The notes below the pieces were generated by a model. The model did not search any database, had not been told where the DNA came from, and worked only from the letters and a program-made list of their open reading frames with translations. From a virus (Duplodnaviria; Heunggongvirae; Uroviricota; Caudoviricetes), in the IMG/VR virus record IMGVR_UViG_3300007747_000052: a stretch of DNA of 6,896 nucleotides; one strand, written 5' to 3'. Shown here in pieces: positions 1 to 6,896 of the stretch; position 1 is the stretch's first letter, and the number at the start of each line of letters is the position of its first letter. The position numbers and the translations under genes are program-made.

Positions 1-217
1 TCCACAGTGAGCGGGAAACCAGCCAGGCATTGATATCCATCCCCATCCGCAGAAAAGCAATCTGTCGTTCAGCCTCCGGCAGTTCTCCCTCTTCGGCATC
101 AAACTTTGCCGTTCGCTGCTGAACAAACGCCAGATATTCAATTCTCTGCAGCCCGGACAGCTCACTGAGCACCACGGACTGCTTTTCATAATTAAACGTG
201 CCCTGTTTCAGAAACAT
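1..217 (-). CDS. Tail assembly chaperone, lambda gpG-like; 5' part only, the 3' end lies beyond window position 1
   Basis: Minus-strand frame from ATG at 217..215 (a second ATG lies at 220..218) stays open to the window edge and translates MFLKQGTFNYEKQSVVLSELSGLQRIEYLAFVQQRTAKFDAEEGELPEAERQIAFLRMGMDINAWLVSRSLW. The MFLK start and TLSELSxLQRIExLA motif resemble the lambda G N-terminus as I recall it. GGTGGAG lies upstream of the ATG. It sits directly downstream of the gpV-like gene, as in lambda. Not in the ORF track because no stop is present in the window. Confidence 0.7.
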   Translation of the reverse strand, partial: MFLKQGTFNYEKQSVVLSELSGLQRIEYLAFVQQRTAKFDAEEGELPEAERQIAFLRMGMDINAWLVSRSLW

Positions 218-231
218 CATGTTCTCCACCT

Positions 232-257
232 GCAAAAAAGCCCCGGATAACCGGGGC
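232..257 (-). terminator. Putative rho-independent terminator downstream of the major tail gene
   Basis: Minus-strand reads GCCCCGG-TTAT-CCGGGGC (7 bp GC-rich stem, plus 240..257) followed directly by TTTTTT (plus A-run 234..239). It lies about 20 nt after the gpV-like stop at 278..280. Orientation fits the minus strand only. Confidence 0.6.
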
Positions 258-277
258 AAATGATGAGTAGCGTCCTG

Positions 278-923
278 TTAACCTGCGGCGCTGACAGCCA
301 CCGCAGCCACTGCCACAAAATCGCCGTCAGAAGTCATGCCCACAATGCTGACACTGCCCTGCTTCACGCCTTTCACCGTGGCCACAAGCCCGTTCAGGGT
401 CACCGTGGCAGTCCGTGGATCTGTCGAATGCACACTGATCGCTTTGTCACTGGCTCCGTCAGGTTTTACTGTAAAGGTCAGCGTGGTGGTTGCTCCCACT
501 TTTACACTGGCAGATGCCGGTGCCACCGTCAGCCCGGTAACGCTCACTGTTTCAGTGCCTTCCTCTGCCAGATACGGACGCCCCACACCGCTGATTTTCA
601 CGGTGCGGGTCATCACGTCTTTTGAGGCAATGGTTTTACCCAGTGAGCTCAGCCAGCCACGGAAAACATCAACAGTGCCGTTGGGATATTTGAACGGATT
701 TCTGCCCCTGGGTTGTCGTTTTCCAGTCTGCATCTTCATCATCGAGATAAGTGTCATCTTCTGCATCAGCGGTCATTTCGCCAGGTTGCAGATCCTTCAC
801 CATCGCAAGACGCAGCCAGTCAGTGTCCGATAAAGGGTTCGCAAACGCATCGCCCTTGCCGGTGTACATCCAGAACGTCGTTCCCGCACCTTTCGTTTTT
901 GCCAGTGGATTTGGTGTGGTCAT
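278..923 (-). pseudogene. Major tail protein, lambda gpV-like, with Ig-like (Big_2-type) C-terminal domain; reading frame is broken near 690..700
   Basis: AGGAGG then 5 nt then ATG at 923..921, immediately after the gpU-like stop (937..935). The N-terminal frame gives [76 protein letters not shown], then runs into a stop at 669..671. The homologous continuation [40 protein letters not shown]... plus an Ig-like tail is in a different frame (ORF 278..766). Both parts resemble lambda V as I remember it ([30 protein letters not shown]). Confidence 0.75.
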
Positions 924-934
924 TGCCACCTCCT

Positions 935-1336
935 TTAATTCGTGTACGTGATCTGGTACGTGATTTCCGCCATCGCCCAGGTGGCCATCTCATTATCACG
1001 TTGATAGTTAAAACCGAGAGGGATCAGGGTGTCGATGAGTCCGGAAAGTGCCGGTATATCATTCAGAGCCGGGAAAATGGTGCTCTCCATCCACATATCC
1101 AGCTCTGAATCCGGTGCCTGTGCCCGGATGAAGACAGCAATATGCAGAACAGCCTGCCAGTCATCTTCATCCGTCATTTTTCCGGTGTACTGAGCATCAC
1201 TCAGCCACACCGCCACGGCAGGCAGTTCCTGCGCATCAATAAATGCCGGAAGCCCGTCAAAAAACGTGGCGCTGTCTCCACACTGTTCCCGAAGGCGTGC
1301 CAGTACGGCCTGGCGGATTTGTGTATGTCGGTTCAT
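935..1336 (-). CDS. Tail terminator protein, lambda gpU-like
   Basis: 133-aa product from ATG 1336..1334 ([15 protein letters not shown]...[31 protein letters not shown]...[42 protein letters not shown]...ITYQITYTN). It is colinear with lambda U as recalled (ATFFDG, PAVAV, PDSELD.WMES, DIPALS, TY.ITY). The ATG overlaps the gpZ-like stop as ATGA. The ORF track starts 4 codons earlier at 1348, which I consider less likely. Confidence 0.85.
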
Positions 1337-1876
1337 CGGGTCAGCCATAACCTCAGTTGTTGTTTCAGTGCATACCCCAGCTGTTTCGGCATTTCCGCAG
1401 CAATGATGCGGTCGCGGGCATCTTCAAATGCCTGTGTCAGCGGTCCGGACAGCGGGATTTTCACTTTTTTCTTGGCCTGCCCTGATGGTCATGCCCTGTT
1501 GCAAAACGCGCTTCAGGAAGACGCCTCAGAACATGCCAGCGGCCATTCGCCAGTTGCTGAACAAATGCCCCCCGGAAAAAGTATTTTCCCACTCTCAGTC
1601 CTTCACCAGCACGCCGCCGTGTTGTGTTCAGTTTGATGGCGGGCAGATTGCCCCGGTTAACGCGGATCCTGGCCGTCATTTTTCCTGACGGACTGGCTTT
1701 AAACACCCGGACACGCTGACGTACCAGTTTCACGCAACGGTATTCCCGGCAACCTGCCGGGTGGCAACCGAGACCGCTTTCTGTGCCACACGGTTTATCG
1801 CCCATGCGCTGGCCTGTGGCACCATACGGGTATCAAGGCTGTTCAGATTGCGGATGGCATTCTCAAGCCCCTTCAT
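1333..1876 (-). pseudogene. Tail completion / minor tail protein, lambda gpZ-like; reading frame is interrupted twice (or is recoded)
   Basis: RBS AGAGGTG then ATG at 1876..1874. Frame A gives MKGLENAIRNLNSLDTRMVPQASAWAINRVAQKAVSVATRQVAGNTVA then TGA at 1732..1730. The homologous continuation VKLVRQRVRVFKASPSGKMTARIRVNRGNLPAIKLN...RGAFVQQLANGRWHVLRRL... is in frame B (ORF 1461..1805) and stops at 1463..1461. The C-terminal part [45 protein letters not shown] is in frame C, ending at TGA 1335..1333. All three segments match consecutive parts of lambda Z as recalled (IKVNRG.LP.IKL, GAF.QQL.NGRWHV, VKIP...PL..AF, LGYAL..QL). Confidence 0.65.
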
Positions 1877-1887
1877 CCCACACCTCT

Positions 1888-2163
1888 TTACTCAATAAAG
1901 ATCATTGGCTTACCGTTAAAGCGTTCATGCCGTGTGACCGTCCAATGTTGTCCGTCATAAACAACGCGATCCCCGCGCCGTGGGCGGTATCCCGAAGAAA
2001 ACACCACCAGAGAGACCGCAGGTCCGGACAGAGCATTCAGCTCTGCCAGTGTTTCTCCCGGGATCACAGTCATATCGACATCATTAATCGAGGCTGTCTT
2101 TCCCATCTTTCTGACCGTGATCGCATCCATACGCGCTGCCAGCCGGGAAAAGGGATCAGACAT
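1888..2163 (-). CDS. Head-tail joining protein, lambda gpFII-like
   Basis: 91-aa ORF MSDPFSRLAARMDAITVRKMGKTASI...RRGDRVVYDGQHWTVTRHERFNGKPMIFIE. It resembles lambda FII as recalled (AA..R.D..I....G.SA.I; RRGD...W.V) and sits in the FII position between the capsid genes and Z. The start ATG 2163..2161 overlaps the upstream gene's TGA (2158..2156) by 8 nt (ATGTCTGA). Confidence 0.7.
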   Translation of the reverse strand: MSDPFSRLAARMDAITVRKMGKTASINDVDMTVIPGETLAELNALSGPAVSLVVFSSGYRPRRGDRVVYDGQHWTVTRHERFNGKPMIFIE

Positions 2164-2479
2164 TGAGTTTTACCGGCACTTCTTCTGCACTGGTTCCGGC
2201 ATCTGCCCAGACAACCCCGACCAGCGGATCAGAGCCGCTGTTAGTCAGCTGAACTTTTCCGGACTTCAGATAAACCTTCTTACCCGTTTTCATGTCATCC
2301 GTTTTCAGCTTAGGCAGCATAAACACACCTTCGGTCAGGCCGTCGCCTGTTTCACCCTGTGGAATATCGGTCAGTGCCACCGCAAAAACATCACCCACCT
2401 GCACCAGATCTCCGCTGCTGATGGCTGCACTGGCAACAATCGCCACCGTTTTTCCTTCTTCTACAAAATTCTTTGCCAT
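2156..2479 (-). CDS. Small head-module protein, possibly a DUF2190-type capsid accessory or decoration-like protein; function uncertain
   Basis: 107-aa product from ATG 2479..2477 (MAKNFVEEGKTVAIVASAAISSGDLVQVGDVFAVALTDIPQGETGDGLTEGVFMLPKLKTDDMKTGKKVYL...VKLNV), preceded by GGAGA at good spacing. It lies between the capsid gene and the FII-like gene. The family assignment is from memory of the MAKN...TEGVF.LPK pattern and is tentative. The ORF-track start at 2524 would overlap the upstream terminator and lacks an RBS. Confidence 0.6.
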   Translation of the reverse strand: MAKNFVEEGKTVAIVASAAISSGDLVQVGDVFAVALTDIPQGETGDGLTEGVFMLPKLKTDDMKTGKKVYLKSGKVQLTNSGSDPLVGVVWADAGTSAEEVPVKLNV

Positions 2480-2520
2480 AACTGTCTCCGCACAGCCCCG
2501 TTCAGGGGCTGATTTCAGGT

Positions 2521-2545
2521 ACAAAAAAAGCCCTTACGGGCCATC
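2521..2545 (-). terminator. Putative weak rho-independent terminator or attenuator downstream of the major capsid gene
   Basis: Minus strand reads G-GCCC-GTAA-GGGC (4 GC pairs plus a G.U) followed by TTTTTTT (plus A-run 2523..2529), about 20 nt after the capsid ORF stop (2566..2568) and before the next gene's RBS. The stem is short, hence modest confidence. Confidence 0.45.
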
Positions 2546-2565
2546 AGAGTTGTTGTCTGCGACGT

Positions 2566-4419
2566 TTACGCCGTACATTTCACCAGACCGCGGTGATCAA
2601 CTGGCGCGACACCGGCGTCAATACGCACTTTCGTTGTCACGCCATCCACACTGAAGCCCTCCATCTGATCAATATATGGCGTATCCACACCGTTGAGATA
2701 AGCCACTTCAATCGTATCGGAGCCTTTTGACGCAGCCAGGTAGAAGGTGGTCTGGCTGTTATCATCAAGACGAGGCTCTGCAATAACGGTCGCAAAATCT
2801 TTCACCGGGTTAATAATACCGGCGTTAATGTCAGCCCCCTTGACACTTGAGGAGCGAATGACCTGGTTAGCAACAGACTCCATCGCCGTCGGTACCAGTA
2901 CGAACGCAGGACGAATATTCAGATGACGCTCCCCCTCTTTCTGAACGCGCATCAACTGGCGGGCTTTATCCAGCGATGCCACGTCCATTGCAGCGCTCTC
3001 CAGTACGTTTGCATGTTTCGCTTTATCGAACAGACTTACATTATCTGTGGAGATTTTCGGGTTAGACGTCAGAATGGCATAAACCAGATCGGCAATAGTG
3101 GATTTCGCCGCACGGCCCAGTTTCATCGGGACATCGGTCAGCATATTCAAATCATCATTGATAATGGCCTGACGGGTGATACTGAACAGCTCGCCATAGG
3201 TCGCCAGTGCAATAGTGGCCTGTTTATCTCCGGTGGTGACGTATTTATATTCCGCCCCTTCACGCACCTGACGCAGAGCACTGAAGCCCCCCATACCCAC
3301 ACGATGGGCAATTTTAAAATCAGACAACTGACCTTTCCGCGTCCACTGTTCATAGGTTTCAGGGGCATCTTCCCAGCCCTGCAGAATGGCTTTGTTCGCA
3401 ACATCCAGCAGAATATTACCGAAGTCAGACGTACTGTGTGTGAACGCCGCACCGACCATCTGCATCGGGTTATAACTGGAAACCCCAATACCCCGTTCAG
3501 TCAGTGACATACGGGCATATTCACGCAGAGTCATCCCGTTGTAGACATTATCACGTTCGGTTTTTTCAAATCCGGCACGCGCCATCAGCGCCTGGCGGAT
3601 CCCGTCCCCCACAAAATTACCGTTACCGGCATAAATATGAGCCGGNNNNNNNNNNNNNCCGCCAAACATGGCAAACAGATCATTAATACCGTTTACACGC
3701 GCTTTTTGCTCTGCCAGTACCTGCGCACGGATACTGTTTTCATCCACCACTGGTGCTGCTGCCTGCACTGGCGTCCGGGGTGCTGCTGGTTCATCATCCG
3801 GTACGCGTGGAGCACTGTTGCGTGGCGGAGTAATCATGTTTCGAATGGATTCCGGCATCTTTTTAAATTCCTCTGTACGTTTTGACTGAATACATGCCAT
3901 TGCCTTAACGGCTGGCGTTACCTGATCAGCAAATCCATGAGCCAGACATTCGGCTCCGGACATCCAGGTCTCATCCGCCAGCATGGCAGCAATTTCATCG
4001 GTGGTTTTCCCGGTTTTCTGTGCATAAGCGGGTAACAGAACCGCCTCAACCTTATCGAGCAGGTCGGCATAGGTGCGCATGTCCTCCGCATCACCGCCCG
4101 TAAAGCCAAATGGTTTATGAATCATCATGAAGGTGTTTTCCGGCATAATGACCGGGTTTCCCACCATCGCAATGACCGACGCCATTGACGCCGCCACACC
4201 GTCGACATAAACGGTAATGGACGCACCATGTGTTTTCAGCGCATTAAAAATGGCGATGCCTTCAAAGACATCGCCACCCGGTGAATTGATATGGAGATTA
4301 ATGTGGGTGATATCGCCCAGTGCATTCAGATCACTGATAAACTGCTTCGCTGTAACCCCCCAGAAACCAATCTCGTCATAAATATAAATATCCGCGTCAC
4401 TCTGGTGACCAGCCTGCAT
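2566..4419 (-). CDS. Prohead protease (ClpP family) fused in frame to a scaffold-like linker and a major capsid protein domain
   Basis: 617-codon reading frame from ATG 4419..4417, 13 nt after the portal stop. N-terminal ~190 aa: IYIYDEIGFWGV...HINSPGGDVFEGIAIFNALK...VDGVAASMASVIAMVG...MMIHKPFGFTGG, i.e. ClpP-like Ser and His motifs. Then a Pro/Ala-rich linker (PPRNSAPRVPDDEPAAPRTPVQAAAPVV). The C-terminal ~360 aa (NGMTLREYARMSLTERGIGVSS...GADINAGIINPVKDFATVIAEPRLD...) looks to me like an HK97-type capsid protein, but that call is pattern recognition only. The frame across the N gap at 3646..3658 is assumed, not observed. The ORF-track extension to 4680 overlaps the portal gene and has no protease similarity. 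Confidence 0.75.
   Translation of the reverse strand: MQAGHQSDADIYIYDEIGFWGVTAKQFISDLNALGDITHINLHINSPGGDVFEGIAIFNALKTHGASITVYVDGVAASMASVIAMVGNPVIMPENTFMMIHKPFGFTGGDAEDMRTYADLLDKVEAVLLPAYAQKTGKTTDEIAAMLADETWMSGAECLAHGFADQVTPAVKAMACIQSKRTEEFKKMPESIRNMITPPRNSAPRVPDDEPAAPRTPVQAAAPVVDENSIRAQVLAEQKARVNGINDLFAMFGXXXXXPAHIYAGNGNFVGDGIRQALMARAGFEKTERDNVYNGMTLREYARMSLTERGIGVSSYNPMQMVGAAFTHSTSDFGNILLDVANKAILQGWEDAPETYEQWTRKGQLSDFKIAHRVGMGGFSALRQVREGAEYKYVTTGDKQATIALATYGELFSITRQAIINDDLNMLTDVPMKLGRAAKSTIADLVYAILTSNPKISTDNVSLFDKAKHANVLESAAMDVASLDKARQLMRVQKEGERHLNIRPAFVLVPTAMESVANQVIRSSSVKGADINAGIINPVKDFATVIAEPRLDDNSQTTFYLAASKGSDTIEVAYLNGVDTPYIDQMEGFSVDGVTTKVRIDAGVAPVDHRGLVKCTA
3646..3658. other. Assembly gap (13 N) inside the protease-capsid ORF
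   Basis: Run of 13 n characters in the sequence. True length and content are unknown, and frame continuity across it cannot be verified. Confidence 0.99.
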
Positions 4420-4432
4420 CCTGAACCAGGAA

Positions 4433-5941
4433 TTATTCTTCGGACTGGTCGTCGGTGTGCTGCGGCTCCTGTCGTTTCGTTGCGGCACTGCTGCCTCCTT
4501 TATCACTGGCCGGATCGGTATCAAATACCAGATCCAGCTTGCGGTTTTCATCAATTTCGGCCTTGCGCCGACGTTTGACATCATCCGGATTACGACCACC
4601 AGCACGTACCCAGTCTGATTCTGTCGCCGCTCCACCACGAATCTGGATTTTCCAGGCCTCAGCCTCCTTAACAGGGTCAATCCACGGCATCACTGGTCCG
4701 GAATACACCGCGGTATACAGTGAAGAACGGTCAAGATCACGGGGTAGCCTGATAACACCGGATGCCACAGCCTGTTTCAGCCATGCACGATACATCGGGC
4801 GGGTGACGGCACCAATAAACCAGTCCTGCAGGATCAGGTAGCCATCAGTAGACTCAACCAGTTCCTGACGCTGGGCGCTGTAAGTGCCGTTATAGTTGCG
4901 TGCCGTACTGGAAAAACTCAGACGACTGCCCGCCGCCACGGCACGCAACTGACCATTACGAAAAGTTTCAAGATTAGGATTGGGGCGATCCGACTTCACC
5001 ATTCCAATTTCTTCGCCGGGTTTCAGATCGTCGTAAATAATGCCTGGCTGAATGGTAAGCTCGCGTTCCTTATCCTTGCTGCCATTACCATCCGGTTCAT
5101 AGCTCTGCCCGTCGCCTTTCCGGATGTACATCCCCAGAGCAGCGGCGATCCTTGCTGCAGTCAGCTCAGAATCTTCATACTCTTTCAGGGCACTGAGGCG
5201 GATCAGCACACCGGACAACAAAGACGTCCCGCGCATCTGGTGCAGACGGCGAACAAATTTAAGATGCAGCATTCGCTCTGCATCCACTTCTTTGGTTTCC
5301 ATCTGCCGTCCGGATACGGGACGGCTTTTATACACCAGATATTTTTCGGGACGCCCCCAGTCATCAACAAACACGCCCTGATTCAGCCTGTTGCTCTCAT
5401 CACTGGTCATGGGAATAAAGTCTGGCTCGAGCGCCTCCAGCCAGAAATGAACATCGGCAGAAGGCGTCAGGCTGTTTATGCGCCCGGAAACCATCTGGGC
5501 AAACACCTCACCATCGCGCAGCCAGGTACGCAGCATCAGACGTTCCAGCATCGGACGGGTAAACTGCCCGGTGACTTCCGGGCTGACAGACCATTCACTC
5601 CATCGGGTGCGAATCTCCGCTGCCAGATCACGGGCAATGGCCCCATTGCGTAATACCGGATGTGGCTCGACAATAATCCCGTTTTTCCCCACCACCCGTT
5701 CTTCCAGCTTGTCAAATACACCAATAACCAGATCGTGGTTGTTATCAAGGTAACGGGCCTGCTCACGTAACGACACGGCCCCGTACTGGCTTAACTGGTC
5801 GGCAGTTCGGTTTTCCCGCCGGGCTTTGTGTGTCCGCGTCGTTTTTACGGCCTCATAAGCCTGGATCACCGCACGGGAACGCAGCCTTGCCGCTTTCCAT
5901 CCTGGTGAAAAAACGCCAATCACATCATCAATAATTGCCAT
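4433..5941 (-). CDS. Portal protein, lambda gpB-like
   Basis: 502-aa product from ATG 5941..5939 (MAIIDDVIGVFSPGWKAARLRSRA...), stop TAA at 4435..4433. It sits in the portal position between the W-like gene and the protease/capsid gene, with size and overall composition similar to lambda B. The ATG overlaps the gpW-like TGA as ATGA; GAGG lies 6 nt upstream. The ORF-track start at 6013 would overlap the W-like gene by 70 nt. Confidence 0.85.
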   Translation of the reverse strand: MAIIDDVIGVFSPGWKAARLRSRAVIQAYEAVKTTRTHKARRENRTADQLSQYGAVSLREQARYLDNNHDLVIGVFDKLEERVVGKNGIIVEPHPVLRNGAIARDLAAEIRTRWSEWSVSPEVTGQFTRPMLERLMLRTWLRDGEVFAQMVSGRINSLTPSADVHFWLEALEPDFIPMTSDESNRLNQGVFVDDWGRPEKYLVYKSRPVSGRQMETKEVDAERMLHLKFVRRLHQMRGTSLLSGVLIRLSALKEYEDSELTAARIAAALGMYIRKGDGQSYEPDGNGSKDKERELTIQPGIIYDDLKPGEEIGMVKSDRPNPNLETFRNGQLRAVAAGSRLSFSSTARNYNGTYSAQRQELVESTDGYLILQDWFIGAVTRPMYRAWLKQAVASGVIRLPRDLDRSSLYTAVYSGPVMPWIDPVKEAEAWKIQIRGGAATESDWVRAGGRNPDDVKRRRKAEIDENRKLDLVFDTDPASDKGGSSAATKRQEPQHTDDQSEE

Positions 5942-6153
5942 CAGAACCTCGCCAGCCGGTACCCGGGATGCCCCCGTCGTCGTGTAATCAGAGCCGCAAG
6001 GCGGCGCTCCCACTCCTGCCGTCCCTGCCGGATCTCAGATAAGTTTTCCATGGTCATCTGCTGACCATTAAAGGTGACGGATTTTCCGTCCAGCACCGCC
6101 ATTTCAGCTTCCGTATAACGCTGAATCATGGCTTCAATATCATTCTGATTCAT
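5941..6153 (-). CDS. Head completion / head-tail joining protein, lambda gpW-like
   Basis: 70-aa product MNQNDIEAMIQRYTEAEMAVLDGKSVTFNGQQMTMENLSEIRQGRQEWERRLAALITRRRGHPGYRLARF. Size, basic C-terminus and position between terminase and portal match lambda W. GGAGG lies 6 nt upstream of ATG 6153..6151 (the ATG at 6159 abuts the RBS, so is disfavoured). The ATG overlaps the terminase TGA (6152..6150). Confidence 0.7.
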   Translation of the reverse strand: MNQNDIEAMIQRYTEAEMAVLDGKSVTFNGQQMTMENLSEIRQGRQEWERRLAALITRRRGHPGYRLARF

Positions 6154-6896
6154 AACCATCCTCCGGAAGTCAGCCAGGGGTTAACATCGTCAGTTACTGT
6201 TTTCTTCCGTTTTTGTTTTTTAACAGGCGTGGATACCGGTTCCGGTGAGGGTGACGGTTCGGTACTGTCCGGGACACACTCCAGCCAGGTTTCCCGGCTC
6301 GCCCACTCCGGTGCATCCGGCCAGCGGATCTTTTCGTATCCATGCAGAATGACCAGAGCCTCGGCATACACCATCAGGTCAAAGGCTTCGTTGGCACCGC
6401 GACCCGGCTTACTCCATTTCCCGTCACTGCTCCGCTCTTCATACGTCAGTTCGTCGTAAAACCAGCTCCCCAGCCAGTCAGGGAAATGCACATAGCCTGG
6501 ACCTGGCGAGTCACGCCATAACGCGTTATTCACCCGGTCTTTCAGGGCATCCGTCTGAAGAAGCCAGAGCGGCACATCACCTGCGGCCTGCGCCCGTCGG
6601 CCCGTTCGTCCGGTGTTATCAGGGAATGTACGGGTGATCAGTTTTGCGCGCCGGATGCTGTCGCCCTTAAACAGGTAAATACGTTTACCAAGGCCATCAC
6701 GACGGCAACGACGCCAGAATTTATAGGCATTATCAGTGACCCCGTCTTCACCGCCGGAGTCCACCGCCATTGCCATCAGTCGCATTTGTTGAGAAGGATC
6801 GGAGGCCAGCGGCCAGCTTTTATGAAAAACATCCGTCAGCAGGACATCCCAGTCTTCCGGATAGCTGGCCGGATCAATTCGCTGGCTCTCCCCGTC
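6150..6896 (-). CDS. Terminase large subunit, lambda gpA-like; C-terminal part only, the 5' end lies beyond position 6896
   Basis: Minus-strand frame is open from the window edge to TGA at 6152..6150 (DGESQRIDPASYPEDWDVLLTDVFHKSWPLASDPSQQMRLMAMAVDSGGEDGVTDNAYKFWRRCRR...GKRIYLFKGDS...YVHFPDWLGSWFYDELTYEE...KPGRGANEAFDLMVYAEAL...). It is directly upstream of the W-like and portal genes. The motifs resemble the lambda gpA C-terminal region as recalled. Confidence 0.75.
   Translation of the reverse strand, partial: DGESQRIDPASYPEDWDVLLTDVFHKSWPLASDPSQQMRLMAMAVDSGGEDGVTDNAYKFWRRCRRDGLGKRIYLFKGDSIRRAKLITRTFPDNTGRTGRRAQAAGDVPLWLLQTDALKDRVNNALWRDSPGPGYVHFPDWLGSWFYDELTYEERSSDGKWSKPGRGANEAFDLMVYAEALVILHGYEKIRWPDAPEWASRETWLECVPDSTEPSPSPEPVSTPVKKQKRKKTVTDDVNPWLTSGGWL

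Follow-up and report, generated by a model that had tools for sequence, protein, structure and literature searches.

Reading-frame breaks in the tail genes Z and V of a lambda-like siphophage record are probably collapsed joins of a gapped scaffold

Three breaks of reading frame, two in the tail gene Z and one in the tail gene V, interrupt the stretch of DNA analysed here, which comprises 6,896 nucleotides and is referred to as the window. Comparison with complete genomes and related contigs makes it probable (about 0.85) that this record is a gapped and probably chimeric scaffold in which small gaps were collapsed, and that the frame breaks are assembly artefacts; they are most likely no biological feature. 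This reading was built on what can be observed directly in the record and its relatives, namely a division into separate blocks that are identical to intact prophages, junctions between these blocks that are unique to the record, and a gap written as N.

The window represents an entire JGI/IMG draft record and contains a run of N, because of which it was regarded as a scaffold. It was regarded as a complete record because two V gene calls from the window, which were looked up in a collection of 15 billion proteins, were each present in one copy only, in both cases on this 6,896-bp JGI/IMG contig. The first is the 84-aa N-terminal fragment of V including its shifted tail (P0001) and the second is the 111-aa gene call of the C-terminal fragment (P0061). 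All genes of the window are located on the minus strand and only phage structural genes are present, in the order terminase, W, portal, protease/capsid, decoration, FII, Z, U, V and G, as deduced from the open reading frames (ORFs) and from the RefSeq annotation of relatives (Table 1). Gene annotation was transferred from these relatives, with locus L013 used for terminase and G. The Pfam profiles Minor_tail_Z, Phage_tail_U and Phage_TTP_12 together with Big_2 confirmed Z, U and V, and precomputed family hits were available for Phage_portal_2, CLP_protease with Phage_capsid_4, Phage_cement_2 and Gifsy-2. Judged by this gene content, the window is the head-tail structural module of a lambda-like E. 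coli siphophage of the mEp460/Ayreon/Tritos type. Since the 6,896-bp contig is without host flanks, the term prophage is an assumption when it is applied to the window.

Two terminator-like hairpins were observed in the window. The stronger one (GCCCCGG-TTAT-CCGGGGC followed by TTTTTT) is located between V and G at 234-257 on the minus strand and is kept in relatives, and a weaker one is located at 2529-2542 upstream of the DUF2190 gene. At about position 936, in the U stop/U-V spacer, the length of the sequence differs by one A (AATTAAAGG versus AATTAAGG); this polymorphism is also present in MS6198, FDAARGOS_536 and TUM9812 and is natural variation, not an error.

Table 1. Coordinates of genes, gene fragments, junctions (J1 to J3) and blocks (S1 to S5) in the 6,896-bp window.
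Feature	Position	Strand	Basis
G tail assembly chaperone, start only, runs off the window	1-217	minus	L013 annotation
V, two fragments overall	278-923	minus	Pfam tail-tube and Big_2
V fragment 2: end of the tail-tube domain and Big_2 Ig-like domain	278-693	minus	ORF, Pfam
Junction J3 without microhomology; lacks the 98 bp at 4392997-4393094 of the FDAARGOS_536 record	693-694		Alignment
V fragment 1: 77 codons in the true frame, followed by 7 out of frame and a stop	669-923	minus	ORF, Pfam
U tail terminator, PF06141, intact	935-1336	minus	Pfam
Z, three fragments overall	1333-1876	minus	Pfam, relatives
Z fragment 3, C-terminal 43 codons and stop	1333-1464	minus	ORF, Pfam
Junction J2, 19 bp missing, TCGTCTTCCTGTGGAGGTA; 1464/1465 or 1465/1466, ambiguous by one A	1464-1466		Alignment
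Block S3, Z middle fragment, 267 bp of Z allele A, off-haplotype	1466-1732	minus	Genome comparison
Junction J1 without microhomology; lacks 28 bp, which read GGAGATAACCAGGTGAAAGGGATCCCCC in 214-4 (allele A) and have A at position 12 in EC6	1732-1733		Alignment
Z fragment 1, codons 1-48; stop TGA at 1730-1732 made by the junction	1733-1876	minus	ORF, Pfam
FII-position head-tail joining gene, PF13856 Gifsy-2, intact	1888-2163	minus	Pfam, relatives
DUF2190/Phage_cement_2 head decoration gene, intact	2156-2479	minus	Pfam, relatives
ClpP-like prohead protease/major capsid fusion, N run inside	2566-4488	minus	ORF, Pfam, relatives
Run of 13 N, scaffold gap for 118 bp (FDAARGOS_536 record 4389892-4390009)	3646-3658		Relatives
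Portal, PF05136, intact	4433-5941	minus	ORF, Pfam, FDAARGOS_536 match
W-position small gene, 70 aa, hypothetical	5941-6153	minus	ORF, relatives' annotation
Large terminase, C-terminal part, off the window end	6150-6896	minus	100% identity to FDAARGOS_536, L013 annotation
Block S5	1-693		692/693 to FDAARGOS_536
Block S4	694-1464		771/771 to FDAARGOS_536
Block S2	1733-3645		1913/1913 to FDAARGOS_536
Block S1	3659-6896		3238/3238 to FDAARGOS_536

The three frame breaks described in an earlier note on this DNA are present in the record, at 1732/1733 (J1), at about 1465 (J2) and at 693/694 (J3), and the terminase fragment, W, portal, FII and U read through as stated there. Z is split into three pieces in three different frames, of which the middle one extends as an ORF from 1464 to 1732, and V is split into two pieces. 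Alignment revealed that 28 bp at J1, 19 bp at J2 and 98 bp at J3 are missing compared with every relative examined, and that all three are clean losses. Homopolymer and single-base sequencing errors were ruled out as the cause, as the lesions comprise 19-98 bp. Of the two readings offered in the earlier note, that of locally poor sequence quality is favoured, in the form of collapsed or unresolved scaffold joins and not of per-base errors. The Pfam Z profile is covered at positions 1-46, 51-139 and 149-190 by the three Z fragments and the Pfam tail-tube profile at positions 1-60 and 94-135 by the V fragments, which in addition include the Big_2 domain; essential parts of the Z and V profiles are missing from the window. 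Restoration of Z with the 28 bp and 19 bp from 214-4 resulted in an intact protein of 196 aa, identical to Z of 214-4, and restoration of V with the 98 bp from FDAARGOS_536 resulted in an intact protein of 247 aa with one residue different. No further lesions were found after restoration of the gaps. Microhomology at J1, J2 and J3 amounted to 0, 1 and 0 nt, respectively, which matches random joins and is unlike slippage between direct repeats, and deletions by replication slippage are on these values unsupported.

Together with the run of N, the lesions divide the window into five blocks, each of which was searched against 5,426 complete E. coli genomes. Four of the blocks (S1, S2, S4 and S5) are identical to the prophage of FDAARGOS_536 (NZ_CP033762.1, 4386654-4393787) in 6,614 of 6,615 bases. 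All genes of this prophage, terminase through J, are annotated as intact; the prophage has the gene order of the window (terL, W, portal, ClpP/capsid, DUF2190, FII, Z, U, V, G) and it possesses the 118, 28, 19-20 and 98 bp that are absent from the window, with exactly 118 bp between S1 and S2 and exactly 98 bp between S4 and S5. The contig contains a single private substitution, at window position 414 (G versus A in all compared relatives), by which a Gln of the Ig-like Big_2 domain of V becomes Arg; either a true variant or an error due to low coverage may underlie it.

The fifth block, S3, comprises the 267 bp between J1 and J2 and is 100% identical to 214-4, EC6 and MS6198. It belongs to Z allele A, a 591-bp gene that represents the minority form: among about 1,830 genomes, 251 cover at least 80% of the query. 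All five complete genomes that carry the rest of the haplotype at an identity of at least 99.9% (FDAARGOS_536, M45, 2017.18.02CC, 1532MA and MLI121) possess allele B of Z, which has a length of 579 bp, and the window differs from FDAARGOS_536 in having a piece of allele A in place of allele B. S3 is the only block off the haplotype, and it is bounded by both Z junctions. Its source was probably a second, co-occurring prophage variant, in which case the scaffold would be chimeric. Due to the fact that allele A adjoins identical local flanks naturally in other genomes, S3 could also be a genuine natural recombinant. At least two sharply different Z alleles occur in E. coli prophages, with a 42-bp in-frame indel in allele B, and the alleles form a mosaic block (window 1466-1641; L013 5857-6131), the right edge of which is located exactly at J2.

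It had further been claimed that the frame disruptions are confined to tail genes and that the head genes are intact. The first of these statements is contradicted by the protease/capsid fusion, a head gene with a comparable fourth lesion, where 13 N stand for 118 bp; the second applies to portal, W, FII and the terminase fragment and is unsupported for protease/capsid. Relatives with the 118 bp are 100% identical to the window on both flanks of the N run. The net loss of 105 bp (118 minus 13) corresponds to 35 codons, and the protease/capsid frame looks open because 105 bp is a multiple of three. In relatives the fusion has a length of 675 aa, and 35 codons fewer are readable in the window. 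The 118 bp replaced by the N run belong to the linker/scaffold region that connects the ClpP domain with the capsid domain. According to our own calculation with a range statistic, the location of the three tail lesions within 1,040 of 6,896 bp has a P of about 0.06 and that of all four lesions within 2,965 bp a P of about 0.21; the clustering of lesions in tail genes is within chance and not statistically remarkable.

The comparison with sister genomes suggested in the earlier note was performed, and the lesions were not reproduced: Z and V of the relatives are intact at all three sites. The three junction 44-mers had no match in the 5,426 complete E. coli genomes, of which 1,825 were matched by a control 44-mer from U, and all 251 allele-A genomes have 714 bp where the window has 667. 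For junction 27-mers and a 30-mer no exact match was obtained in IMG/VR, JGI metagenome contigs and GTDB species representatives. These latter scans were run without positive control and the window's own contig was likewise unmatched in them, so that they were given less weight than the search of complete genomes; they show the absence of the junctions from other records, not sensitivity to a rare junction. A panel of related loci, 95 in number and composed of 80 IMG/VR contigs, complete genomes and Logan/ENA contigs, contained no sequence with a gap inside the four intervals. The other gap runs of at least 8 columns reported for the panel were common to several loci or had a length that is a multiple of three, and the window was alone in displaying four private gaps, of which three shift the frame. 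Uninterrupted Z and V frames at these positions were found in all of the 76-85 panel sequences that span each interval and in at least 1,800 complete genomes. Natural length variants were rejected as an explanation, as the shared in-frame indels of the panel (42 bp in Z allele B, and one of 33 bp) overlap none of the window's gaps. The isolated phages PhiR40_1, Tritos, Ayreon, mEp460 (mEp460_4F5), phi458 and the cdtI phage align to 97-100% of the window with a nucleotide identity of 98.1-98.7%; the corresponding region measures about 7,133-7,145 bp in these phages and 6,896 bp in the window, and none of them lacks the stretches that the window is missing.

Prophage lesions are annotated in three of the genomes used for comparison. 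In MS6198 the genes for the tape measure (H), M, L and I are annotated as frameshifted, in TUM9812 a truncated tape measure (H) gene is joined to the tip gene, which is also truncated, and in 214-4 the capsid fusion gene is annotated as frameshifted. The annotated lesions are located at 8825-14146 of locus L002, at 8543-13611 of locus L014 and at 3580-5639 of locus L015, and may represent real decay or long-read errors.

The ends of the blocks were also compared with the ends of independent contigs. The 48-residue Z fragment that terminates at J1 is encoded at the extreme contig end in Logan/ENA assemblies, of which at least 23 were read independently (69 index blocks); these contigs end 0-2 nt past J1 of the window, and the left side of J1 is a place where assemblies habitually break. 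Contigs of many short-read assemblies that are independent of each other (Logan, ENA; 3' ends of L003-L012) break within 0-2 nt of the same Z position, and several of them also have split capsid genes. The shared break in Z suggests that co-resident lambdoid prophages have a branch point in common here. In a test modelled on the ends of de Bruijn unitigs, 4 of 8 block boundaries, namely both ends of the N gap, J2 on its right side and J3 on its left side, were found to adjoin sites polymorphic among relatives; with a background frequency of such sites of 0.20 (P about 0.05), this coincidence of block ends with polymorphic sites is no more than suggestive.

From these sequence comparisons the following course of events can be proposed. 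The five blocks would have been assembled separately, from low coverage and/or from mixed related prophages, and the stretches of 118, 28, 19 and 98 bp between them would never have been assembled. Read pairs would then have served to string the blocks together. One join would have been written as 13 N, which is 105 bp too few, and at the other three joins the blocks would have been abutted without N, giving rise to apparent deletions of 28, 19 and 98 bp. General knowledge of scaffolders suggests that a similar size bias may have led to estimates of zero or less at these three joins: since their gaps are all shorter than 105 bp, a similar under-call would give a size of zero or below and hence abutment. 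On this view the assembler would have made the joins, owing to low coverage, strain-variant bubbles or both, after taking the gaps to be of size zero or less. Some scaffolders always place at least one N per join, and N-free abutment depends on the pipeline; a literature search yielded no citable account of the behaviour of scaffolders at negative gap estimates. With regard to the record itself, it is a scaffold with a gap, and clean, private losses are found between blocks that match intact relatives.

The alternative proposed in the earlier note, a decaying prophage that could still assemble heads and not complete tails, would require that three to four independent small deletions inactivated Z and V and shortened the capsid scaffold region, so that heads could be formed at most. 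The lesions are present in the deposited record itself, tail genes are annotated as frameshifted or truncated in related prophages of complete genomes (MS6198, TUM9812) and bacterial pseudogenes are biased towards deletion. Because real decay occurs in this prophage family, a small probability was retained for this alternative, which is nevertheless unlikely. Four deletions of 19-118 bp would have to be set against no more than a single substitution over 6,615 bp; in mutation accumulation of E. coli, substitutions far outnumber multi-base deletions. Of the substitutions, nonsense mutations and small indels that are the signature of decay alongside deletions, one substitution in 6,615 aligned bases was all that was found. 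The lesion of the capsid gene is demonstrably a gap of N, and its position is at odds with heads having been spared. Moreover, S3, which two of the lesions enclose, does not belong to the haplotype of the other blocks, the second lesion in Z would be redundant for inactivation of the gene, and the junctions were found in no other genome, contig or assembly searched. Spontaneous deletions in E. coli typically make use of short direct repeats, and the 0, 1 and 0 nt of microhomology speak against decay as well. The intact prophage from which the window differs by this one substitution occurs on several continents.

A somewhat smaller chance still was given to a natural variant of this widespread E. 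coli prophage in which the deletions are real and arose very rapidly and without microhomology, Z being shorter by 28 and 19 bp, V by 98 bp and the capsid scaffold region by about 105 bp. Such a variant would imply an unusual local deletion process or selection for tail-less and defective particles. Real deletions would make the element a further defective prophage, the interest of which would be modest. It is improbable that the case is mixed, with some of the joins being artefacts (certainly the N gap) and one deletion, e.g. the 98 bp in V, being real in a subpopulation. J3 is flanked by two blocks of one haplotype, which speaks for this case, yet it bears the same signature as the other joins in being clean, without microhomology, private to the record and flanked by sequences of 100% identity. 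Programmed recoding or alternative gene forms are hardly conceivable: lambda-like tail modules use a programmed -1 frameshift in G/T, and ribosomal frameshifting as in lambda G/GT was excluded for Z and V, as the breaks are caused by 28, 19 and 98 missing bases, the frames of the relatives are continuous without a conserved frame change, and essential parts of both Pfam profiles are absent. A head-only element similar to a capsid-forming PICI was excluded as well, as Z, U, V and G are present and, apart from the gaps, identical to those of intact prophages.

In their overall appearance, cryptic prophages and capsid-forming PICIs resemble the window superficially in combining readable head genes with unreadable tail genes. 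The window differs from both in that its tail genes are present and match those of intact phages except for clean gaps, substitutions have not accumulated, island genes and host flanks are absent from the contig, and the capsid gene is itself gapped. A likeness also exists to short-read draft and metagenome scaffolds of multi-copy lambdoid prophages with scaffold gaps and chimeric joins, with which the window shares a mis-sized N run, blocks identical to a reference with short losses between them, junctions private to the record and a break point common to many assemblies; the three N-free joins of the window set it apart from these. If the frame breaks of Z and V are indeed collapsed joins, such joins in draft and metagenome scaffolds of multi-copy lambdoid prophages can mimic pseudogenising deletions, and calls of defective prophages or patterns of head versus tail decay derived from these records would mislead. 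Comparison with complete genomes block by block exposes the artefact quickly.
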